A model generated the notes under the pieces. It was given only the letters and a program-made list of their open reading frames with translations. It ran no database searches and was not told the DNA's origin. 64,000 bases of DNA, taken from the NCBI GenBank assembly GCA_964653195.1, contig CAZZCX010000001.1, positions 35,290 through 99,289 of the forward strand, given 5' to 3'. A program made the position numbers and the translations under genes. This document shows positions 1,825 through 63,991 of the stretch, piece after piece. Position 1 is the first letter of the stretch; every line of letters begins with the position of its first letter. Origin of the DNA: an uncultured Gammaproteobacteria bacterium. GTDB lineage: Bacteria; Patescibacteriota; Microgenomatia; Levybacterales; UBA12049.

Positions 1825-3693
1825 TTAGAAGTATTCCATTACTTCCTCATTTTTTATTGTGTATTTTAGGCTTTTATTTATAACTTTTTCCGGTAATTCA
1901 AAAATGAAACGGGAAACTGTATTTTGATTCATTCTTCCAAAAAAAATTCTTTTTCTTGCGTATGTCAGATAAAGTTTTTCACGGGCTCTTGTCATTCCTA
2001 CATAACAAAGTCGTCGTTCTTCCTCTAGCTCGTCTTTATTCATAAGCGATCTACTATGAGGAAAAATACCTTCTTCCATACCTATTATAAAGACATATGG
2101 AAATTCTAATCCTTTCGCAGCATGAAGTGTCATAAGTGTCACCGCATTCTTTTTTCCGTCGTTAAGTTTTTTATCTGCATAGTATTCGCTTTCTACTAAG
2201 GACACGTTTTCTAAAAATTCTGTCAGTTGGGGAAAAGCGAGTGCGACTGATCTAAGTTCTTTTATATTTTCCAACCTTGCTCTATCTTCAGGATCATCTT
2301 CATCATATAATTCAAGATACTGTGTAGCCTTTATTGTACTATCAAGTAGTTCAATTGTTTCTATGCTTTCAATTTCTTTAATACTTTCTGAAAAAACTAA
2401 AAATTTCTTCAATCTTCCCTTCCCTATTTTTTCTAATCTTTTAAAAGATATCTTGTCTTTTGGGTTTCCTAATATTCTTAAGTAAGACAATACGTCTTTG
2501 ACTTCCTTTCGATCATAAAATCTAGTACCGCCAATCAAAACATAAGGAATAGAGTTATGTAGAAATGCCTCTTCAACTATGCGGGATTGCGCGTTCGTAC
2601 GGTACAATATTGCAATTTGGTCTAATTTACTAATCCCTATAGAATATATTGATTTTATAATGAAATCTATTTCGTCTTGTTCATTAAGCGATTCGTAGAT
2701 CTCTATCTCCTCGCCATGCGGATTCTGTGTCCAAAGTGAGAGAATTGGATGAGTCGTGTTGTGTGCTATAACTGCAGTAGCACCGTCTAATATTTTTTGG
2801 GTGGAACGATAGTTTTGTGAAAGAGCAAAAGTTTTAGTTTTTGGAAAATCATCTTTAAAACGGGTAAGATTTCTGTAATCAGCACCCCGCCATGAGTATA
2901 TGCTTTGTGAGAAATCTCCCACAACACAGATATTATTATATTTTTTAGCTAGCAATTTGGTAAGAAGATATTGCGCTCTATTAGTATCCTGATATTCATC
3001 AATAAGAATATACCTAAACTGATCCTGATACTTTTTTAGAACCAATTCGTCTTCTTGAAATAGTTTTACTGTATGGTTTATGAGATCATCAAAGTCCATA
3101 GCATTATTTTCTTTTAAAAGTCTTTGATAGCTAGGATATATTACTGCAACTGTTTTTTGAAATTGTCCTCTGGCAAAAAGTGTATATTGCTCTGGTGTTA
3201 TTAACTCGTTTTTAGCACCACTTATAGTTCCCAAAATCGCATTCGGTTTGAAATCTTTCGTAGAGATATAAAGGTGTTCCATTGTTTGTTTAATTAAATC
3301 TAGAGAATCATTACCATCATAAATGGAAAATTGAGATGAAAAACCAATCTTGCCTGCCTCTTTTCGTAGTAATTTGGCACATAACGAGTGGAAGGTTGAG
3401 ATAAATGGACTCTGATTTTTGCCTAGTTGTTTATATTTAGCAAAGAATTTTTGGATTCTTTCTTTCATTTCGTTAGCCGCTTTATTCGTAAATGTAACCA
3501 TAAGAATATTCTCAGGAGCTACATTTTTTTCCAAAATCAGATATATAACTTTGTATGTAAGAACTCTAGTCTTTCCGGAGCCTGCACCGGCAAGTATTAC
3601 TGTCGGTCCATTGGTTGCTTCAACTGCTTTGAATTGTTCGTTATTTAAAGAGTTGAGTAGTTCACTTTTCATAAGGTATAATGATTCAGTCAT
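1825..3693 (-). CDS. UvrD/PcrA/Rep-family ATP-dependent DNA helicase (short form)
   Basis: Walker A AGAGSGKTRVL; helicase motifs DEYQDTN, YRS, LTLHAAKGLEF, VGMTRA. Confidence 0.8.
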   Translation of the reverse strand: MTESLYLMKSELLNSLNNEQFKAVEATNGPTVILAGAGSGKTRVLTYKVIYLILEKNVAPENILMVTFTNKAANEMKERIQKFFAKYKQLGKNQSPFISTFHSLCAKLLRKEAGKIGFSSQFSIYDGNDSLDLIKQTMEHLYISTKDFKPNAILGTISGAKNELITPEQYTLFARGQFQKTVAVIYPSYQRLLKENNAMDFDDLINHTVKLFQEDELVLKKYQDQFRYILIDEYQDTNRAQYLLTKLLAKKYNNICVVGDFSQSIYSWRGADYRNLTRFKDDFPKTKTFALSQNYRSTQKILDGATAVIAHNTTHPILSLWTQNPHGEEIEIYESLNEQDEIDFIIKSIYSIGISKLDQIAILYRTNAQSRIVEEAFLHNSIPYVLIGGTRFYDRKEVKDVLSYLRILGNPKDKISFKRLEKIGKGRLKKFLVFSESIKEIESIETIELLDSTIKATQYLELYDEDDPEDRARLENIKELRSVALAFPQLTEFLENVSLVESEYYADKKLNDGKKNAVTLMTLHAAKGLEFPYVFIIGMEEGIFPHSRSLMNKDELEEERRLCYVGMTRAREKLYLTYARKRIFFGRMNQNTVSRFIFELPEKVINKSLKYTIKNEEVMEYF

Positions 3694-3749
3694 AACATTC
3701 TAACATATGATCTATTAGCCCTGAAGATCAGAGTATGAATTTATAGAAT

Positions 3750-4430
3750 ATGAAAAAGCTTTTTATTGTTGGGAATTGGAAATCTTACAAGACTAAGTCT
3801 GAAGCGATCGAGTGGTTTACTCAATTTACCAATACGAGCTTGGTTCTTGCTGACACAGAAAACAAAATAATAATACTTTGTCCACCATTTCCATTACTAG
3901 CCATACTTGAGGATTTAATTGCTAAATCTATAAACAACACCAACTTAAATCTAAACTTAGGATGCCAAAACGTTTCTTCTTTTGAAGAAGGTGCTTATAC
4001 AGGGGAGGTATCTGCAAAACTTCTAAGTGGATTTTGTAAATATGTAATCATTGGACACTCAGAAAGAAGAACTAATTTTAAAGAAACTGATGACCAATTA
4101 AAAAGAAAAGTCGAATTAACCAAGCGTTTTAACATGACGCCAATTTTTTGTATTCAAGGTAAAGAGACAATAATACCAGATGGAGTTGATGTAGTAGCAT
4201 ATGAACCAGTTTCCGCAATAGGTACAGGTAAGCCTGACGATCCGATTGATGCCGAAGAGGTAGCTGGTTATGTAAAGGAAAAATATAAAGTTAGTGTAGT
4301 TTTATACGGGGGCAGTGTGAACGAGAATGATGTCACTTCATTTACAAATCAACCTCACATAGACGGTGTTTTAGTGGGTGGAGCGAGTAGAGATGCAATC
4401 AGCTTCACTAAAATAATTAAAAATGCTTAA
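3750..4430 (+). CDS. tpiA: triosephosphate isomerase
   Basis: IVGNWK, IIGHSERR, and GGSV...E... motifs. Confidence 0.85.
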   Translation: MKKLFIVGNWKSYKTKSEAIEWFTQFTNTSLVLADTENKIIILCPPFPLLAILEDLIAKSINNTNLNLNLGCQNVSSFEEGAYTGEVSAKLLSGFCKYVIIGHSERRTNFKETDDQLKRKVELTKRFNMTPIFCIQGKETIIPDGVDVVAYEPVSAIGTGKPDDPIDAEEVAGYVKEKYKVSVVLYGGSVNENDVTSFTNQPHIDGVLVGGASRDAISFTKIIKNA

Positions 4431-4516
4431 AGGCATTTTATTTGCAAAAATGCGAATATAACTATCCATATTAGGTGTATATTCGCATTATTCATGTTAA
4501 ATCTAAAACTAATCAT

Positions 4517-5659
4517 ATGCCAAAACGGAAAAAGAAACTTTCACAGAAAAAAACTATAGTATTAATTTCGTTGGTATTTGCGTTAATAGGATTTTTGATT
4601 ATTTCAAAATTTTCTGCATACATAAAACCCTTATACGAACTAGCTTTTGAAAAAAAGATAGAACTAAAAAAAACTAACGAAGAAAAGATAAATATACTTT
4701 TATTAGGAATAGGAGGTGGTTCACATGACGGGCCTTTGCTTACGGATACTATTATGTTTGCCAGTATAGACCCCTTGAAACTATCTGTAAACTTAATATC
4801 GATTCCAAGAGATTTATGGATTGATGAAGTTAAAGATAAAGTTAATAAAGTTTATGTTTATAGCGAGGTTAAGAAAAAAAGTTCCGGATTACTTGAAACA
4901 AAAAGAGTAGTAAGTAAAGTAGTTGGTCAAAGAATTGATTATGGTTTTCTAATTGATTTCACCGGTTTTATAAAGGCAGTTGATATTATAGGAGGAATTA
5001 ATGTAAAAGTAGAAAGATCATTTGATGATTATGCCTATCCAGTTGCTGGCAAAGAAAATGATCTTTGCGGTTTTGAAGAAGAGTCAATAGCAAGCTTTTC
5101 TGCTCAAATCGCAACCGGGAGCGCTACCGATTTTGATATATTTCCTTGCCGCTTTGAGCATTTAAAATTTGAGAAAGGGGAACAGCATATGGATGGCATA
5201 ACAGCATTAAAATTTGTGAGATCACGGCATGCGCTCGGTCCTGAAGGTACAGACTTTGCTAGGAGTATGCGTCAGGAAAAAGTGATAAAAGCAGTAAAAG
5301 AGAAAGTATTTTCAGCGGGAATACTCCTAAATCCCGTGAGAATATTTAGTCTATATGATGTAATCAAAGATAGTATAGATACAGATATAAAAGAGGAAGA
5401 AATTGATGATTTCATAAAGCTTGCACAAAAAATGAAGAATTCAGAAATTCACAGTACAGTATTAGATGTGAGTGAAGATGACCGCGAAATACCAGCATTG
5501 CTGTGGAATCCACCTATTTCAGATGAGTATAATTATCAATGGGTTATAATTCCTAAAAAAGGAAAAAGTGATTACTCAGAAGTCCATACATACATAATGT
5601 GTATTATAAAATATAATGGCTGCTCAGCTACTCCCACCTATTCCACATCGATTAACTGA
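4517..5659 (+). CDS. LytR-CpsA-Psr (LCP) family cell-wall polymer transferase
   Basis: N-terminal TM; LLLGIGGGSHDGPLLTDTIMFASID...SIPRDLWI matches the LCP core. The start is moved to the internal ATG at 4517 (MPKRKKK). Confidence 0.7.
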   Translation: MPKRKKKLSQKKTIVLISLVFALIGFLIISKFSAYIKPLYELAFEKKIELKKTNEEKINILLLGIGGGSHDGPLLTDTIMFASIDPLKLSVNLISIPRDLWIDEVKDKVNKVYVYSEVKKKSSGLLETKRVVSKVVGQRIDYGFLIDFTGFIKAVDIIGGINVKVERSFDDYAYPVAGKENDLCGFEEESIASFSAQIATGSATDFDIFPCRFEHLKFEKGEQHMDGITALKFVRSRHALGPEGTDFARSMRQEKVIKAVKEKVFSAGILLNPVRIFSLYDVIKDSIDTDIKEEEIDDFIKLAQKMKNSEIHSTVLDVSEDDREIPALLWNPPISDEYNYQWVIIPKKGKSDYSEVHTYIMCIIKYNGCSATPTYSTSIN

Positions 5660-5666
5660 TATTTTT

Positions 5667-5694
5667 TTGACAAAACTTGAAAATAAAGTATAAT
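5667..5694 (+). promoter_or_regulatory. near-consensus sigma70-type promoter (TTGACA-16-TATAAT)
   Basis: ttgaca at 5667-5672, a 16-nt spacer, tataat at 5689-5694. This implies the downstream ORF really starts at the internal ATG 5722. Confidence 0.4.
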
Positions 5695-5721
5695 CGGCAT
5701 GATAATAAACTATTTATTATT

Positions 5722-6231
5722 ATGTTTGCGGATGTATTGAAAAGATCAGGAATATTATATTTTGTTATTCAGCAAACAATTGTGCCTGTATATTTTCCTG
5801 TACCTTTAGAAATTGAAGTTATCACCAGTTTACAAACACCAAATCTAGAGAAACTACCAGATATCAAAAACCACAAGGTCAAGTACAGTTATCCTATTTA
5901 TGAAAAGTTATTAGATGAGGAGGTATTTGACAACGCTGACAATACAGCAGGTGATAGAATAGACGATACTGTTAAAACAAATACATGTGATAGTTGTTCA
6001 TATCCATCTATCAGTCATCTGTCTACATTGGAACCGGTGGATGAAAATAAAAGTGCGTACGAAAAGCCAAAATCTGTTTTATCCTCATTGCCAACTGCAG
6101 ATTTAGTTCTGCCTACACCAGTGATCGTCGTAGAGCCTCCTGTAGATCCGTTTGGGTCAGTTAATCCAGGTTGTGGATGTGGCATGGTTTCAGAGAAGGG
6201 TATGGAGACAATCTGTCTTTGCCTCGAGTAG
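5722..6231 (+). CDS. hypothetical protein with a hydrophobic N-terminus and Cys-rich C-terminus
   Basis: The ORF-track start (5677) lies upstream of the predicted TSS. The C-terminus reads ...NPGCGCGMVSEKGMETICLCLE. No family recognised. Confidence 0.3.
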   Translation: MFADVLKRSGILYFVIQQTIVPVYFPVPLEIEVITSLQTPNLEKLPDIKNHKVKYSYPIYEKLLDEEVFDNADNTAGDRIDDTVKTNTCDSCSYPSISHLSTLEPVDENKSAYEKPKSVLSSLPTADLVLPTPVIVVEPPVDPFGSVNPGCGCGMVSEKGMETICLCLE

Positions 6232-6249
6232 CTTATTATTGATAGATAG

Positions 6250-8727
6250 TCACTTATGGATTTTTAAGATAAATGTATCTTCAGACTTGAAAACTGTCTT
6301 TCCAATGCTTTGAAGCTTCGATTCTTTTAGTAATGGATATTTCTCTCGCTCTAACCTTCCAATTATTACATAAGAGATATTGTATTTTTGTAATAATTCT
6401 TTAGTAATTAGTAAATCTTCAGATTCGTATATTTGCCTTATGTCATCAGTTCTTGAGTTTGGGGCATCTTGTCCTCTCCACAACCATTGGTGGACATACC
6501 ATCCAAGTACAGTTGGTAAGCCTGTATTTGCAGAAAATCTTTCGTAATCTGTATAAGAATCACCTTGCGCTTCAAGAATTACTGGCTGGTTTTTGAGATT
6601 ATTCAACCATAGATATGCTTCATAATCCCCGCTGGAACGGTTCTTTAAATATTTTACTCCATCTAATCCGACATACGTTTTAAGTCCATTGTAATAAGAA
6701 ATTACGGCAAAGTAAGGGTATACCAGTACAAGAGAAATAAGTGTAGCCGAAAGAAATACATAAGCCAAGTAAAGAGGTTTTATGGGTATTGGAAGTAATC
6801 TCAAATTATACTTTGAAGAAGTCCGTGTGATAACATATCCACTTACTATAGACAACATAATAAATGCCTGAAAAACTAATTTAAACATAGTATTTGCTCT
6901 GTAATGATCAGGATATATATCTTTCATATATATAAATTCAGGAATAATTATTAAAAATGTCGAGATAATTATCAGTAAAAGGATGAATTTATCAGTCTTT
7001 TTTAAAGGTTTATTTTTTAAGAAAAAGACTAGAAAAGTAAAAATAAAAAAATAAAAGAAACCATATAAAGTCAAAAGTTGCCATAGAGGTGATCTTAGGC
7101 AATGATCTGGTTCAAATAGTAAAGGTCCGATCTTTCTGCTTGTATACTTTGTGGTAACTTTTTGTGAATCTTTTGTATTCATCAGAGATAAGCAGTGATC
7201 CGGAACAAAAATCTTTTTTATAAGATTTCTATTATCTATGCCATATGTTTTTCCGGACATATCAACAGTTTCTTGAGTTAGAAATATTGAAGGAGCGCCT
7301 ACTACACCTATTCCGCCTACAAGTTTTGATGCATCAAAATTAAAAGAAAATGGGCGAGAAAAAAGGAAAAAAGTAAATAGAAGAATTGATAATTGGACTA
7401 GTAAGCCTATACCAAAATTTACAATCGGTTTCTTTAACTGAGATGATAGTCCATTGCCCCAATTTATTTTTAATGATAATTCATCTTTTGTTTGTTTTGT
7501 GACGTATTCTTCACTTGTCTTTCTAAAGACTCGATTATAGTGATAATAAAATAATACTAATGCAGTAAGTAGTAAATAAGTTAAGCCGTCCCATGCGTTT
7601 GTCATATACATGCTGGAGAGAAGAAAACTTATAAACACTAAACCGCTTACTATTGGTTTCATTCTACTTTTTGGGTCAGTAAAAAATATTACAAAGATTG
7701 TCGATATGGTGAGCAGTACTATCGGTATATCAGCAACATGCCCATGAAGATCAGCTACTACCCAGGAGTATATAGGAAATTCATGTATAGTATTGTGAAT
7801 AAATCTGGTTGCATTGGGATACCAGTAGTTATTTGGGACTGCCGTCAACTTTTTCTTATCAACTTCATTGCAATAAACTATTTCCTTGCTACCACTTGTG
7901 CTAATTTTTTCATACGAATCCTTACCGTAGCAAGGATTAACAAGAGACAATTCTAAATTCCAAATAGGCATTGGTTTCTCTACGTCATATGGCTTGAAGA
8001 ATATATATAAAATATGTAGATTACCAGATAGGCTAACCAAGCTGGCTGTTATAAGACCACCAACTATAATTCTAAAGATTTGCTTCTCAATTTTATTAAA
8101 AGATCGGGCTATGAGTGTTATTCCTAAAGAAAAAGACTCTAAAAAACATAATGCGAACAGTGTTGCGATCATTAAGTTGTAGGTAATAAAAGATGGTATT
8201 CCTGATGCCTTTGTGAGGACAGCAGTTATGAAATGACCGAAATAGTAATAATTTATAGGTAGTCCGGAATACCACATATCAACTGGAGGGAAATAAGTTG
8301 AGCGGAGTATAGAGTTTACAAAACCAAAATCCATATATTTCTCCAGGCCATAAATTTCAGGATTGAATGCGCGAACATAAGACCATGAGAGAAGACAAAG
8401 AAAGAAAATACATTCTTCGAATATAAAAAGAAAAATTCTTTTATGATTCAATAATGATTTATAACTTTTGCCTTTCCAAACGAGAATTGGAATTATTGTA
8501 AAAGTAAATATCAAATAAATCGAATAATTTGTAAACGGGGTTATTTTAAATATACCTAAGACAAAAACCAAATAGCTTATTATTAGTATTCCAAGAATCT
8601 TTGAGAACCCATAGCCCTTATCTAAAAATGAAGAAAAAATTATACCTGCTAAGGGCAAGAATACAATTCCTGATATAAAAAAAATAATCCACCAGCGAAA
8701 AACATACATGAGATCGTGTATTGGCAT
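6250..8727 (-). CDS. large polytopic membrane protein, possible GT-C-like glycosyltransferase (DUF2298-like)
   Basis: 825 aa, many predicted TM helices at both ends with a central soluble region. Sits in the glycosylation cluster. Confidence 0.35.
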   Translation of the reverse strand: MPIHDLMYVFRWWIIFFISGIVFLPLAGIIFSSFLDKGYGFSKILGILIISYLVFVLGIFKITPFTNYSIYLIFTFTIIPILVWKGKSYKSLLNHKRIFLFIFEECIFFLCLLSWSYVRAFNPEIYGLEKYMDFGFVNSILRSTYFPPVDMWYSGLPINYYYFGHFITAVLTKASGIPSFITYNLMIATLFALCFLESFSLGITLIARSFNKIEKQIFRIIVGGLITASLVSLSGNLHILYIFFKPYDVEKPMPIWNLELSLVNPCYGKDSYEKISTSGSKEIVYCNEVDKKKLTAVPNNYWYPNATRFIHNTIHEFPIYSWVVADLHGHVADIPIVLLTISTIFVIFFTDPKSRMKPIVSGLVFISFLLSSMYMTNAWDGLTYLLLTALVLFYYHYNRVFRKTSEEYVTKQTKDELSLKINWGNGLSSQLKKPIVNFGIGLLVQLSILLFTFFLFSRPFSFNFDASKLVGGIGVVGAPSIFLTQETVDMSGKTYGIDNRNLIKKIFVPDHCLSLMNTKDSQKVTTKYTSRKIGPLLFEPDHCLRSPLWQLLTLYGFFYFFIFTFLVFFLKNKPLKKTDKFILLLIIISTFLIIIPEFIYMKDIYPDHYRANTMFKLVFQAFIMLSIVSGYVITRTSSKYNLRLLPIPIKPLYLAYVFLSATLISLVLVYPYFAVISYYNGLKTYVGLDGVKYLKNRSSGDYEAYLWLNNLKNQPVILEAQGDSYTDYERFSANTGLPTVLGWYVHQWLWRGQDAPNSRTDDIRQIYESEDLLITKELLQKYNISYVIIGRLEREKYPLLKESKLQSIGKTVFKSEDTFILKIHK

Positions 8728-59623: not shown

Positions 59624-60403
59624 ATGTATAAATATTTTAAAATTTGGTGGTTACTTATGGTTCGTACGGCGCAAATCGCGCTTGAGTCACGGCTTGGGGT
59701 CATTATATTTCTTTTAGGTAAATTAATTCGTTTCGGAGCATACCTATTTTTTTTAATAGTAATACTATCTAAGACCCAAACTCTGGCCGGGTATTCTGTC
59801 TCACAGGTTCTACTTTTCTTCGCGACATTTAACTTCATCGATACCTCAGCACAGTTTTTACTCCGAGAGGTATATCGTTTTCGTCGCCATATAATCTCAG
59901 GATATTTTGATTACACATTGCTTTGGCCGATATCCCCTCTCTTTAAGTCACTCTTTGGTGGCTCAGATGTTTTAGATATACCTATGATTTTAATTTCTGT
60001 GGGATTAATCATATATACAGTATTTGGCCAAGACGTAACAGTAATGGGAATTATTCTTTATCTGTTTTTGATACTTAATGCTTTTTTTATCGCACTGGCT
60101 TTTCATATATGTGTTCTATCGTTAGGTATACTTACGACTGAAATAGATAATACATTATGGATGTATCGGGATCTGACGCAAATGGGAAGAATTCCAATAG
60201 ATGTATACAAAGAGCCTATTCGAGGCATCATAACATTTGCAGTGCCAGTTGGGATAATGATGACATTTCCCGTAAAAGCAATACTAGGATCACTATCTCT
60301 TTCAGTTGTGATTTTATCATTTAGCATCGGGCTCGTATTTGTCTTTTGTAGTTTATTGTTTTGGAAATATGCATTGAAGCGGTATTCGAGCGCAAGTAGT
60401 TAG
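59624..60403 (+). CDS. ABC-2 family transporter permease (type B')
   Basis: Homologous to the 57934 ORF. Confidence 0.55.
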   Translation: MYKYFKIWWLLMVRTAQIALESRLGVIIFLLGKLIRFGAYLFFLIVILSKTQTLAGYSVSQVLLFFATFNFIDTSAQFLLREVYRFRRHIISGYFDYTLLWPISPLFKSLFGGSDVLDIPMILISVGLIIYTVFGQDVTVMGIILYLFLILNAFFIALAFHICVLSLGILTTEIDNTLWMYRDLTQMGRIPIDVYKEPIRGIITFAVPVGIMMTFPVKAILGSLSLSVVILSFSIGLVFVFCSLLFWKYALKRYSSASS

Positions 60404-60429
60404 GTGAAAGAAAGCTGGAGAGTTTTTCG

Positions 60430-60940
60430 CGCTTCCGGGAAACGAGTAAGCCAGATTCTGCTTCGCCCTCCGTAGCTTAAGCGAAGGAGGGTTTACCTCA
60501 ATCATAAAGCCCTAAAAGGACCAAACCGCAATCTATCTAAAAATGATGTTTTATGTCATTTTTTCCCGCTTTAGACGGGATGCCCGTAAACTTTGATGCT
60601 TCCGTATGCCGGTATAACGCATCTTTCGACGGTTGCAGCAGGTAGGATTACCTTTGCCCTCCATAGCTCATATGAGCGAAGGAGGGACCGTTTCATCCAT
60701 CAACCATGATCTTACAATTTTAGGTTAATGATCGTCTCTGTGGTTCTCGTCTTGAGTCAATTCTCAATCCGTGTTTGAAGAGTTTCCCCCTCAAGCCACT
60801 GGCTGTCACCAGCCGGAGCTTACACTCCGTCCCTTTGCATACTGCTGTCTGGACTTTCCTCCCCACTTCGCCAAGGCTTCGAGGGGCAAGCCCATCTTAG
60901 CTTCGGAAAATAGGGTAGCGGTTCTGTTTCCCGGAATCGC
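60430..60940 (-). ncRNA. rnpB: RNase P RNA (bacterial type; unusually long at about 510 nt)
   Basis: The minus strand carries the P4 5' strand GGGGAGGAAAGUCCAGAC (+60845-60862). The P4 3' strand GCAGAAUCUGGCUUAC (+60450-60465) has the bulged U. P1 is an 11-bp perfect pairing, UUCCGGGAAAC / GUUUCCCGGAA, at the two ends. Boundaries are approximate. Confidence 0.6.
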
Positions 60941-60994
60941 TCCTATAGTATATCAAATGTATATGGATTTGACTATTTAGGTGGCAAATCTAGA

Positions 60995-63991
60995 TTAGTG
61001 TTGAATTGAATGGGTCTGACAGATCATTTTAAATTCACAATTTTGGCATATTATACCGCCAGAACAAATAAATTTACTTGTACTGATCTCAGCTACTTTT
61101 TCTGTAATTTGCTGTTTGATTACATCAAGTTGTGACCTTGTTCTAACTGTTGATACCTTTATATCCTGATCGACATACCAGAGGGAAAGGATGACATTTT
61201 CAGGATTACGGTGAAATATTTCGCTTTGGACTTCTGAGGCAGCTAAAGCATAAATTGATAGCTGTAAATCCACATCAAGTTTTTTTTGATCCGGTATCTT
61301 ATACCCAGTCTTATAATCAATAATTTCAATTTTCTCATTATCTAATGAGTCGATTCGATCAATTCTACCTCCAACTTTTAAGCTTGATCCATCTAGTTTT
61401 TTTATGAAGAAACCGAATGCTGTTTCTAGAGCTAGAGGACTTGCTTTTTTATTTGTCTCGTTATTCAAAAAGCGAGTTAAAGATGCCTGAGCATTTATGA
61501 AAGCTTGATTCATGTGTTCTTTGCTTTCAAAGCCAGTAGTGAGCCAATTACGCCTAAGTAATGAATCTATGGATAATTTATTTACATCTTCGTTTGCCAT
61601 TTTTAAATTGAAATAATCTTTTAGAGTGTTATGTATTGAAATTCCTATATTTTGTGCACTAGATGGAGGAGTTGGAATTTTGAGAATATTCTTTAATTTA
61701 TAATGTAACGGACAGATGTCAAAAGATTGGATTTGAGAATAAGAAATGTAGGTGATCGGTACTGGTGTATGGGTGGTAGGTTGTTGCTCGTTATTTGCCG
61801 AATCTATATCATCTTTGCCATTTGTTAACTCCTGCTGCACTTGGTCGTTGGCCAAATCAAGGAGAGAAAGCTGCTTTATTGATTGAGTATACTTCTCTTT
61901 ATTTAATAATTTTTTAACAATTTCTTCACCTATAGCTTCATAAACAAATGGTGAAATTTTTCGAATTGTCTTGCCTTCACTATAATATTGGGATGCGCAA
62001 AGGTATAAGAAACGTTTTGCGCGTGTCATCCCTACGTAAAACAATCTTCTTTCCTCCTGTAGATTATAATCCCCAACGGGCAGTATTTCTTTTATAAGTT
62101 CAATAGATACTGGTATTTGTTCTTTGCGTGCACGTGTTGGAAATCTTTGCGTTACAAGGTTGACTAGAAATACAGCCTTAAATTCAAGACCTTTACTTGA
62201 ATGGATAGTTAAAATATTTACAGCATTGGTATCTGCCCAATCCATATCAGCAGCCTTTGGGCTTTCACCAAGCTGCATAGCAAGTTCAATCCATTCAGAG
62301 GTAGCAAAAACTGATGAATCAATGTGACTGGACTCAAATTCTTTCAACTTTTCAAAAAATTTAGCAACATTTTGAGCACGTTTCTCATCTTGGGGTAATG
62401 AGGCTGCTAGATAATTCTGCAGTAAACCTGAGTCTTCTAGAAAATAGTATAAAATTTGCCCAGCAGTGTCTCTTGGGATTCGTTTAAGATGTTTATTAAT
62501 CATTAAAGTAATTCTTTTTACTTTTTCTTTGGTTACGTCTTTTATATAAATTTGCTCGACTTTTTCTATGGCCTCGAAAAGACTTAGGTTTTGTATTTTT
62601 GCATAATTTATAATTGCTGCGATATCTCGAGCGTCAAGATCAAAAACAGGCATACTAAGGAGGCGATACATAGCGGAGTTATCTTGGAAGTTGGATAAAA
62701 CTTTAAGGTAAGATACTAAATCTTTAATTTCTTCTTGATGAAACAAATGGCCAGGTCCTAAAAACTGATATGGTATTTTAGATCTTTCAAGGCAGCGTAC
62801 AAAAGGCTGTGAATGATCATTTGCTCGAACGAGAATCGCTATATCTTTATATAATAGACCTTTTTCATTCACCAGTTTCTTTATACTTTTTTTGACTTGT
62901 TCTGCTTCATTCTCTATGTTATTGGTGTATAAAAATTCAACAATGCTGTCTGTTTGAACCAGCTTGCTTGCTGAAATGGAAGGATTCAGCATTTCTTGAT
63001 CATTTTTCATGGCAATTAATCTTTTGTCAATTTTTTCTTTGAATTCTAGGCGGTCAGGGTTATTGTGTTGAATTAACTGGTATGCTGAGTCTAGAATCTC
63101 TTTAGATGACCTGTAATTTTTAATAAGTGTAACTATTGTCGCTTGCGGAAAATTCTTTCTGAACTGGATGATATTTGCAATTGCTGCACCTCTCCATCTG
63201 TAAATTGATTGATCGTCGTCTCCTACTACGTTGATATTTTTTTTATCACCAGCTATCAGCATTGCAAGTGTATTTTGAGCGAAGTTTGTATCCTGAAACT
63301 CGTCAACGAGTGTATACTTGAATTTTTCTTGGTAGTATTTTAAGATGTTTGGTCGCTCTCGAAATAAACGAAGAACATTGGCGTTTAAATCCGAGAAATC
63401 CATAATGCCTTCTTGTGATTTGATTTCTTCATAAATTGCATAAGTATTTGCTAATTCAAATATTTTTTTTACTTCGTTTTTTTCCTGCGTTTTATCTTTT
63501 GCAAATTTTTCTGCAAATTTCTTATAATCTTTGGTTGTTATATCATCATCTTTAAGCCGATTAAAATGCTGTATAAGTCCTTGCAAAAATTTATATGGAC
63601 TACCTAAAGGCCTAAAGTAATCAAGTTTTAATTTAAATATATTTTTTTTTAGTAATAGCATCGCTTCAGCCTCAGTTGATAGCTTATAAGAAGGATTTAG
63701 TCCAATGTGTATAGCTTCATCACGAAGGATGCGATCACAGAATGAATGAAAAGTTGATATCCAAAGCTGTGTATATCCGTAAGGAAGTACTACATCAACT
63801 CGGGATTCCATCTCTAACGCTGCTTTTTCAGTAAAAGTTAATGCAAGTATACTGGATGGATCAATTTGTTTTTCAAGTATTAAGTGTTTAATGCGTTGGG
63901 TGACAACAGTAGTTTTACCAGTTCCAGCTCCCGCAATAATAAGTAATGGTCCTTGTCCATGCTTGACTGCTTTGAGTTGTTCTTCATTCAA
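60995..63991 (-). CDS. UvrD-family helicase fused to a C-terminal PD-(D/E)xK (RecB/Cas4-like) nuclease with a 4-Cys cluster; the N-terminus runs to or past the window edge
   Basis: AGAGTGKTT Walker A and UvrD motifs. C-terminal IDYKTGY nuclease motif and C..C...C......C Fe-S-type cysteines. The first codon at the window edge is TTG. Confidence 0.75.
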   Translation of the reverse strand: MNEEQLKAVKHGQGPLLIIAGAGTGKTTVVTQRIKHLILEKQIDPSSILALTFTEKAALEMESRVDVVLPYGYTQLWISTFHSFCDRILRDEAIHIGLNPSYKLSTEAEAMLLLKKNIFKLKLDYFRPLGSPYKFLQGLIQHFNRLKDDDITTKDYKKFAEKFAKDKTQEKNEVKKIFELANTYAIYEEIKSQEGIMDFSDLNANVLRLFRERPNILKYYQEKFKYTLVDEFQDTNFAQNTLAMLIAGDKKNINVVGDDDQSIYRWRGAAIANIIQFRKNFPQATIVTLIKNYRSSKEILDSAYQLIQHNNPDRLEFKEKIDKRLIAMKNDQEMLNPSISASKLVQTDSIVEFLYTNNIENEAEQVKKSIKKLVNEKGLLYKDIAILVRANDHSQPFVRCLERSKIPYQFLGPGHLFHQEEIKDLVSYLKVLSNFQDNSAMYRLLSMPVFDLDARDIAAIINYAKIQNLSLFEAIEKVEQIYIKDVTKEKVKRITLMINKHLKRIPRDTAGQILYYFLEDSGLLQNYLAASLPQDEKRAQNVAKFFEKLKEFESSHIDSSVFATSEWIELAMQLGESPKAADMDWADTNAVNILTIHSSKGLEFKAVFLVNLVTQRFPTRARKEQIPVSIELIKEILPVGDYNLQEERRLFYVGMTRAKRFLYLCASQYYSEGKTIRKISPFVYEAIGEEIVKKLLNKEKYTQSIKQLSLLDLANDQVQQELTNGKDDIDSANNEQQPTTHTPVPITYISYSQIQSFDICPLHYKLKNILKIPTPPSSAQNIGISIHNTLKDYFNLKMANEDVNKLSIDSLLRRNWLTTGFESKEHMNQAFINAQASLTRFLNNETNKKASPLALETAFGFFIKKLDGSSLKVGGRIDRIDSLDNEKIEIIDYKTGYKIPDQKKLDVDLQLSIYALAASEVQSEIFHRNPENVILSLWYVDQDIKVSTVRTRSQLDVIKQQITEKVAEISTSKFICSGGIICQNCEFKMICQTHSIQH

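Follow-up and report, generated by a model that had tools for sequence, protein, structure and literature searches.

RNase P RNAs of the Candidate Phyla Radiation (CPR) were described by Lui et al. (2021, PLoS Comput Biol, PMC8172020), and the sections of that paper on which we draw report RNAs that score under the Rfam thresholds, often lack helices P13, P14, P16 and P17 and occasionally P12, can have extended helices and, in about two-thirds of cases, are without the UGG motif for binding the pre-tRNA CCA. Here, we looked at the RNase P RNA gene (rnpB) of a Levybacteria-like member of the Patescibacteria (Microgenomatia), located at 60429-60940 on the minus strand of a 64-kb stretch of DNA (the window), and at two near-identical palindromic hairpins inside it, called modules A and B. 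The gene resembles the published CPR RNAs in that it is class A, scores below threshold, comes from a clade much of which lacks P12-P14, has extended helices and belongs to Microgenomatia. In the sections mentioned, extra length is put down to 'extensions of helices' and dispersed repeats go unmentioned, whereas two insertions of the window gene are copies of a palindrome found across phyla. A class-A gene with a sub-threshold score is thus known for this radiation, and what would be new is that insertions in rnpB are copies of a cross-phylum palindrome. Modules A and B are probably REP-like palindromes that entered the ribozyme at permissive sites of its periphery and were retained there as helices.

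Repeats have been encountered inside rnpB before. STRR repeats are reportedly present inside the rnpB of heterocyst-forming cyanobacteria (the report is said to be that of Vioque in 1997, Nucleic Acids Res 25:3471), and they are said to be tandem heptamers in P12, confined to one cyanobacterial group. Like the modules, the STRRs are reported to be a genome-wide repeat lodged in a peripheral part of rnpB, transcribed with the ribozyme and tolerated, and their arrays may be taken as the nearest precedent for repeats inside this gene. Unlike them, the modules are single palindromic hairpins of 26-30 nt, located at P13/P14 and P19, found in either polarity and in many phyla.

Judged by its sequence and its covarying pairs, 60429-60940 is a bacterial class-A rnpB gene of a diverged Patescibacteria form. 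A 15-nt inverted repeat (60429-60443 and 60926-60940, 93% complementary) brackets the region and forms P1. On the minus strand, it encloses GAGGAAAGUCCAGAC, the P4 5' strand (60847-60861), and CAGAAUCUGGCUUAC, the P4 3' strand (within 60446-60465), and the expected long-range P4 helix was found (GAGGAAAGUCC... with ACAGAA..GGCUUA and a bulged U). This helix, AAGUCCAG paired with CUGGCUU, bulged U included, is unchanged in all 21 sequences of the clade. The signature strands CCACAGAGA (J11/12) and GAUGAAACGG (J12/13) are also present on the minus strand; together with the P5-P9 core, they align to RF00010 with high posterior probability and are kept in the clade. P1 occurs in four different paired versions among the clade sequences, with compensatory changes in relatives (UCCGGGUAAC/GUUACCCGGA, CCUAGGAAGA/UCUUCCUAGG and UUCUGAGAAU/AUUCUCAGAA), and P2 covaries as well (CCGC/GCGG, CCAC/GUGG, UCAC/GUGA and CUGC/GCAG).

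The relatives were obtained in two ways. Seven syntenic loci with a complete rnpB were reached through homologues, 66-98% identical, of the flanking helicase (L121-L124 and L126-L129; the L125 contig ends short of rnpB), and 13 more were found by scanning metagenomes for a 23-nt P4/P5 string, 12 of them delimited at full length. Altogether, 20 copies besides that of the window were delimited out of 22 related loci, and all 20 align end to end with the window gene, from P1 to P1. This full-length alignment, together with the covarying P1 and P2, indicates that the gene is 60429-60940, with both hairpins inside. Its length of 512 nt agrees with the ends about 510 nt apart that the original prediction, which gave no strand for the gene, had placed by its P1 and P4 elements, and the gene is indeed oversized: the other 20 copies span 354-652 nt, most of them 354-407, the RF00010 model has 367 positions, and only L132 (652 nt) is longer. 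In L132, about 250 nt are inserted in the P15-17 region, and P8/P9 and the P19 position hold additional small hairpins. Compared with the compact L124, the excess of about 140 nt in the window consists of an enlarged P3, a P12-like hairpin, module A, and a small hairpin together with module B.

The Rfam covariance models see this gene poorly. At the curated thresholds, they gave only a tRNA in the window and nothing at rnpB. At a relaxed threshold, RF00010 gave 35.6 bits (E 2.9e-9), below its gathering threshold of 100 bits, over 60508-60900 only, and module B was left outside. This hit is a mis-alignment in which the model took a false 3' P4 strand (AGAUAGAUUGCGGUUUG). In the L122 orthologue, which has both hairpins, the RF00010 alignment is full length (model 1-367) and both hairpins lie inside it. 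Clade members gave 55-70.6 bits over the full model (E 3e-14 to 2e-21), with one exception among the relatives tested, L127, whose best match was the archaeal RNase P model. Since a shortfall is published for this radiation (in the sections of PMC8172020 cited above), the sub-threshold score would mark a limit of the RF00010 model and not count as evidence against class-A membership. Applied to the letter, the refuting condition set by the original prediction would have told against the finding, because the score stays below threshold with module B outside the hit; the comparative data show this to be an artefact of the model.

The two hairpins are built alike. On the plus strand, module B (60466-60491, CCCTCCGTAGCTTAAGCGAAGGAGGG) reads CCCTCC-GTA-GC-TTAA-GC-GAA-GGAGGG and module A (60657-60686, CCCTCCATAGCTCATATGAGCGAAGGAGGG) reads CCCTCC-ATA-GCTC-ATAT-GAGC-GAA-GGAGGG. 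On either strand, each folds into a 6-bp stem and an inner stem, separated by a 3x3 internal loop, with a loop of 4 nt at the tip, and the folding energies of the two on the RNA strand are -12.3 and -18.1 kcal/mol. The hairpin pattern matches twice in the window and in none of 100 shuffles. The inner palindromes to which attention had been drawn, GCTCATATGAGC with CATATG and GCTTAAGC with CTTAAG, are present in the window but are not conserved: orthologues carry GCTCATATAAGC, GCTTTTACAAGC, GCTAAAGC and GCTGAAGC in their place. The CATATG and CTTAAG palindromes are, on this comparison, mere hairpin tips and incidental. The internal loop was also compared with known RNA motifs. The strands of the 11-nt GNRA-tetraloop receptor are CCUAAG and UAUGG; module A has CCUUCG...CUAUGG and module B CCUUCG...CUACGG, and the receptor was rejected. 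A kink-turn has a 3-nt bulge followed by tandem sheared G.A pairs, and it was rejected as well, since the loop, which on the RNA strand is UUC/UAY, is a symmetric 3x3 that has neither a bulge nor tandem G.A pairs. A sarcin-ricin reading was ruled out on sequence.

To locate the hairpins in the ribozyme, the clade sequences were aligned by MAFFT with explicit pair tables, and the covariance-model alignment of L122 agrees with the resulting helix assignments. The whole-RNA minimum-free-energy fold ignores the P4 pseudoknot and was kept out of the assignment. The features of the gene, all on the minus strand, are as follows, from the 5' to the 3' end of the RNA:
60429-60940: rnpB, 512 nt, P1 5' strand to P1 3' strand (P1 arms, RF00010, alignment of relatives, P1/P2 covariation)
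60926-60940: P1 5' strand, GCGAUUCCGGGAAAC (inverted repeat and compensatory changes)
60918-60924: P2 5' strand, GAACCGC, pairing with GCGGUUU at 60523-60529
60861-60886: P3 distal hairpin, CCCCUC-GAA-GC-CUUG-GC-GAA-GUGGGG (clade alignment, fold)
60847-60860: P4 5' strand and conserved region, AGGAAAGUCCAGAC
60697-60732: P12-like hairpin, 9 bp with a 17-nt loop (P12 according to the covariance model in L122)
60657-60686: module A, RNA CCCUCC-UUC-GCUCAUAUGAGC-UAU-GGAGGG, at the P13/P14 position
60564-60580: P18 hairpin of ordinary size, UCCCGUCUAAAGCGGGA (covariance-model and clade alignments)
60523-60529: P2 3' strand, GCGGUUU (covariation)
60508-60522: small extra hairpin in J2/4, 5' of module B, GGUCCUUUUAGGGCU
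60466-60491: module B, RNA CCCUCC-UUC-GCUUAAGC-UAC-GGAGGG, in J2/4, at the P19 position
60446-60465: 3' part of J2/4 and P4 3' strand, CGAAGCAGAAUCUGGCUUAC
60429-60443: P1 3' strand, GUUUCCCGGAAGCGC (inverted repeat and covariation)

Neither hairpin is an expansion of P12 or P18, as had been proposed, since P12 is a separate short hairpin, P18 has its ordinary size and the copies are located at P13/P14 and in J2/4. Module A lies directly after the J12/13 strand and before the P11 3' strand. The class-A peripheral helices P12, P13 and P14 are all missing from 17 of the 21 sequences, and the window has a short P12-like hairpin, found elsewhere only in L121, L122 and L123, with module A where P13/P14 would be. 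Module B lies between the P2 3' strand and ACAGAA, where other bacteria have P19, a helix of class B and some class A RNAs (table in PMC2858038). Together with the small extra hairpin, which is common only to the window, L121, L122, L123 and L128, it resembles P19 in its place, which has the P2 3' strand on one side and the ACAGAA/P4 3' strand on the other, and the Phenylobacterium RNA also has a hairpin there. It differs from P19 in that most of the clade has no helix at this site, in that the helix of the window is a copy of a repeat family, and in that the hairpin of L132 and L138 has the opposite polarity.

The other suggestion of the original prediction, small inserted elements, is the one that the evidence favours: syntenic relatives carry both hairpins, one or neither, and the same sequence is dispersed through unrelated genomes. 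The relatives are distributed as follows:
Window, L121 and L122/L123: module A present; module B present with the small extra hairpin
L128: module A absent; module B present with the small extra hairpin
L129: module A absent; module B diverged (CCCGAC...GACGGG), without the small extra hairpin
L124, L126 and L127: both modules absent
Ten of the 12 delimited metagenome copies: both modules absent
L132 and L138: module A absent; hairpin of complementary polarity at site B

The empty sites are short and regular, GAAACGG-NN-AAUCC for module A in L124 and L126-L142, and GCGG-NUNAAA-CAGAAU for module B in L124, L126 and L127. Between the window and L122, the stems and internal loops of the modules show no difference in 44 nt, while the remaining rnpB differs by 13.9% and the terminal loops of the modules vary. 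The few changes in other relatives are compensatory: a C-G pair is replaced by U-A in module A, and a U-A pair by G-C in module B of L129. This strict conservation among relatives suggests that the copies now matter to the RNA. We also ran a structure-based scan (any outer stem, NTA...GAA core) over the window and the flanks of its relatives, and it gave no convincing further copy against a background of 0-2 chance-like matches in shuffled sequence.

Outside this clade, the 22-nt sequence of stem and internal loop (CCCTCC-NTAGC...GCGAAG-GAGGG, plus strand of the window) recurs letter for letter in unrelated genomes. The search pattern CCCTCCNTAGC-N(2-12)-GCGAAGGAGGG has 21 specified bases, for which we estimate about 3 chance matches, and a scan of the one-genome-per-species GTDB collection, with the exact outer stem demanded, found it in at least 120 genome loci of at least 12 phyla. 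With 21 viral-contig stretches added, at least about 140 loci carry it. Among the matches listed, and going by record titles, we found Bacteroidota, Verrucomicrobiota, Lentisphaerota, Kiritimatiellia, Planctomycetota, Patescibacteria, Nitrospirota, several classes of Pseudomonadota, 'Deltaproteobacteria', Acidobacteriota, Actinomycetota, Omnitrophota, Fibrobacterota and Binatia, as well as one archaeal metagenome-assembled genome (MAG) and one cultured isolate, Aureisphaera galaxeae. At least nine MAGs, among the matches listed, give two or three loci each, and one viral contig of 33.8 kb holds four copies. The flanks of the loci are mutually unrelated. Among 145 instances, the variable position is occupied by G in 112 cases, by A in 27, by C in 5 and by T in 1, and the commonest tips are CTTG, TTTA and TTCA. 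As many as 22 of 24 long forms have at least two extra inner pairs of differing sequence (shuffle mean 2.1), so that, as far as such pairs can tell, it is the fold that is conserved and not the inner sequence. Modules are often found near kin with another outer stem and the same core (in L027, CCACCC-GAAGC-CTTG-GCGAAG-GGTGG), and copies of opposite polarity adjoin or surround them in L027, L059, L152, L154 and L156. A crude count of the open reading frames (ORFs) next to solo modules showed no strand bias (upstream 47 same against 34 opposite, downstream 39 against 38). A relaxed Rfam scan of 60100-61300 on both strands (E up to 10) placed no family on the hairpins, no family fell on the module itself in Rfam scans of 37 module loci, and a literature text search with the module sequence returned only chance primer matches and no description of the module. 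In Nitrospira loci (among them L015, L029, L031, L048, L069, L075, L080, L097 and L107), the module was seen inside a larger conserved composite repeat, ...CCCCGTAGCTTGCTACGGGG ATGAAGGCGAGGAGAA [module] TAGCGGCTTCGGAGAATTTCGCAGG..., and the sequence suggests that these composites may be lineage-specific multi-hairpin units.

Copies were also found inside genes of other structured RNAs, and in both polarities. The rnpB of Phenylobacterium (L100, 2405-2804) is canonical, with 290.6 bits, and has the module at 2643-2668 as a 27-nt insertion in P16/17. Its RNA carries the purine-rich polarity CCCUCC-GUAGC...GCGAAG-GAGGG, opposite to that of modules A and B. In a Peribacteria locus (L113), the module lies at 5785-5815 inside the 23S rRNA gene (3568-7201), at the 5' edge of a group I intron match (5790-6020), and has the polarity of the window, CCCUCC-UUCGC...GCUAUGG-AGGG. 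In the window itself, the tip of P3 (60861-60886) is a third, diverged module-like hairpin, of polarity opposite to A and B, which by our count shares 21 of 26 positions with the module form seen most often, CCCTCCGTAGCCTTGGCGAAGGAGGG; this type of P3 is also present in L131, L133, L139 and L141. The P3 hairpin is partly complementary to modules A and B. Several distant members of the clade have a related hairpin, CGUCC-UGAG-UUUAUC-GAAG-GACG, in P15-17.

A recurrent neighbour of the module is a small nuclease gene. All eight 80-aa GIY-YIG genes (Pfam PF01541) among the module loci listed (L014, L026, L027, L040, L041, L047, L050 and L059) lie at most about 430 nt downstream of the module and on the same strand. 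Seven of them follow a predicted tRNA or tmRNA gene, and that of L027 follows a tmRNA-like 3' end. The converse also held: three of three GIY-YIG homologues picked by the number and length of their contigs, without regard to the module (L164-L185), show the same layout, in which a predicted tmRNA (two) or a tmRNA-like 3' end (one, the L174 group) is followed by hairpins of the same build and then by the gene. In the recurrent cassette, the 3' end of a tRNA or tmRNA gene is followed by a hairpin array, with the GTAGC...GCGAAG core present in either polarity, and then by a GIY-YIG gene, and the stretch between the two genes appears to be the 'home' setting of the module. Many cassette GIY-YIG genes were seen on very short contigs, as repeats are. 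In one of the three homologue families (L174-L181, ~1788-2270), a 160-aa PF01797 gene (Y1 transposase of the IS200/RAYT type) begins 48 nt after the GIY-YIG gene. A tblastn search with this transposase retrieved only its own loci and nothing in the module loci or the window, three GIY-YIG queries detected no such gene on the viral contigs with the module, and a literature search on GIY-YIG with palindromes, tmRNA or COG2827 found nothing relevant. Tentatively, and with more doubt than confidence, we would regard the module as part of an undescribed cross-phylum palindromic family, whose autonomous form would consist of a tRNA/tmRNA 3' end, a hairpin array and an 80-aa GIY-YIG gene, sometimes with a Y1 gene. 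Its solo copies would settle, in either orientation, in genes for stable RNAs and be co-opted there as helices; the sites would be the rnpB of at least two phyla, an intron region of 23S rRNA and the trailers of tRNA and tmRNA.

Among described elements, the modules come close to REP/REPIN sequences (Di Nocera et al. 2013, PMC3733652), which are likewise short imperfect palindromes, dispersed and mostly intergenic. REPs are hairpin-forming palindromes of 20-40 bp, and the modules measure 25-34 bp, with a 6-bp outer stem and a 3x3 mismatch. Like REPs, they are often paired in opposite orientation (L152, L154, L156, L027 and L059), and they contain GTAG. One family of GIY-YIG loci has the adjacent PF01797 gene. 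The differences lie elsewhere. The REP tag is an unpaired GTAG (or CGTC) at one end (PMC3733652), whereas the G/A-TAG of the module is enclosed by its 6-bp outer stem; most REP families do not extend beyond a single species or genus, whereas the module sequence is shared across phyla; and the recurrent neighbour of the module is a mini GIY-YIG nuclease by a tRNA or tmRNA gene, not a RAYT. Because it lacks the free GTAG tag and a lineage-restricted sequence, the module is REP-like and not a REP.

Around rnpB, the window has a UvrD/PcrA-type helicase with a PD-(D/E)XK nuclease domain on one side and ABC-2 permeases on the other. The order helicase-rnpB-ABC-2 is conserved in the relatives, Pfam PF12705 is present in the relatives of the helicase, and the named ones among its listed homologues come from Levybacteria and other Patescibacteria. 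One homologue, P0031 (1333 aa), has Pfam PF01079 (Hint) and PF14890 and therefore probably contains an intein. In L127, rnpB (~6013-6413) is inverted between the usual flanking genes, and in L122 a gene for a bAvd/23S-rRNA-intervening-sequence-type protein (6596-6964) lies downstream of rnpB and replaces the ABC-2 permease. L124 and L126 share two small ORFs (about 75-90 aa) between the helicase and rnpB, and L125 has one of 77 aa; these have no Pfam hit on record, and the window has no such ORFs. Just upstream of P1, we noted one further feature, which rests on a consensus match only, and a TATACT/TATAAT box precedes P1 in relatives too:
60947-60975, minus strand: promoter-like site TAGTCA-17-TATACT, with TG before the -10 box (consensus scan)

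How the hairpins came to be in the gene can be read in several ways. They might have arisen within rnpB, copied or grown from native helices, with any likeness elsewhere being coincidental or convergent on a Shine-Dalgarno/anti-Shine-Dalgarno-like GGAGG/CCUCC stem with stable loops. In favour of such an origin, the 64-kb window has just two copies, both of them in rnpB and both at sites (P13/P14 and P19) that are commonly occupied by helices in bacterial RNase P RNAs. Against it stand a 21-base pattern present in more than 140 loci where we would expect about 3, the asymmetric core and the loop preferences (CTTG, TTTA, TTCA) shared by the family, the Phenylobacterium rnpB with its module at a different helix, and the window's own relatives with variants of opposite polarity at the same site. 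We consider this explanation very improbable, and the dispersed copies contradict a purely internal origin and largely refute it. The conserved strand could instead be the plus strand, with the hairpins stabilising or terminating the 3' end of the convergent ABC-2 operon, which ends at 60403, and the overlap with rnpB being incidental. On that strand, the modules do have the polarity of the GIY-YIG leaders, module B lies 63 nt past the ABC-2 stop codon, and REP elements are often located in 3' untranslated regions (PMC3733652). However, the explanation fits B poorly and A not at all; module A lies 254 nt past the stop codon; neither hairpin is followed by a T-run and a terminator scan reported none there; in L122, the downstream gene differs and both modules are unchanged; and the modules of L113 and L100 lie inside RNA genes where no convergent operon can be invoked. 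It therefore has hardly any probability in our eyes.

A more serious competitor, although still an unlikely one, sees in the hairpin first of all a functional RNA module, such as a protein docking site or a tertiary contact, which selection on RNA function would have spread and which would serve one and the same end in RNase P RNA, in group I introns and in GIY-YIG leaders. The unchanged stems and internal loops with varying terminal loops speak for it, as do the covarying inner stems, the UAUG kept by module A and the UACG kept by module B in all close orthologues, and the recurrence of the window's RNA polarity, UAUGG included, in the 23S rRNA gene of another CPR lineage. On the other hand, the complementary polarity is present in the Phenylobacterium rnpB, in P3 of the window, at site B of L132 and L138 and in every GIY-YIG leader. 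As the loop is purine-rich (GUA/GAA or GAA/GAA) in one polarity and UUC/UAY in the other, there is no single RNA motif. The internal loop also fits neither the 11-nt tetraloop receptor nor the kink-turn, and no Rfam family matched on either strand. The insertion of REP-like palindromes, which we prefer, has its own difficulties. The full conservation of the stems and loops could mean a sequence-specific RNA function. No high-copy repeat was seen in the window, where the module is found only in rnpB, and the census behind the dispersed family, at least 120 loci, demanded an exact outer stem, so that the abundance and limits of the family may differ. Target-site duplications at the two sites are weak or ambiguous (UUAAA/UGAAA in L129 and CGAA/CGAA in L128, with nothing clear at site A), and transposition of the module is a proposed mechanism only. 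Finally, in a neighbour-joining tree of the helicase, L129 and L128 are basal and the module-free L124 is sister to the module-bearing L122, a placement that demands recombination or repeated precise loss. We suspect that the rnpB segment of L124 has recombined relative to its helicase, because L124 shares the two small ORFs with L126 and its specificity domain resembles those of L126 and L128.

If modules A and B are inserted palindromes, their history may be pictured as follows. The clade has a compact RNA of about 355-400 nt, without P12-P14, which in the lineage of the window would have regrown to 512 nt by peripheral insertions. The palindrome, made of the outer stem CCCTCC/GGAGGG, the asymmetric core NTA-GC...GC-GAA and a variable inner stem-loop, would have arrived by insertion of a mobile or recombining element, more than once, at several permissive sites and in either orientation in RNase P RNA genes. 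The peripheral positions used would be the P3 tip, P13/14, P15-17 and P19. There, the copies would fold as self-contained hairpins away from the catalytic core and so be tolerated, and selection may since have kept them as helices of the ribozyme. Their spread could involve the GIY-YIG nuclease, the Y1 transposase or recombination. With regard to the original prediction, its observation is confirmed and its interpretation partly supported: comparison with the rnpB of related genomes, which it had called for, places both hairpins within the gene.

For annotation, this case explains how covariance models can miss such genes or misplace them, here by 80 nt at the 3' end. For mobile elements, a 22-nt sequence shared by at least 12 phyla and tied to mini GIY-YIG genes is possibly the larger prize and merits a study of its own. 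For RNase P, the insertions would give a concrete origin to part of the odd architecture of CPR RNase P RNAs, and they indicate that the ribozyme can acquire helices at its periphery by taking in finished hairpins from a repeat dispersed over the genome. Alleles with no module, one or two coexist in nature and already form a deletion series for peripheral helices. If the tentative picture of a cross-phylum family is true, such palindromes would be one source of the 'lineage-specific expansions' in the ribozymes and rRNAs of the CPR.

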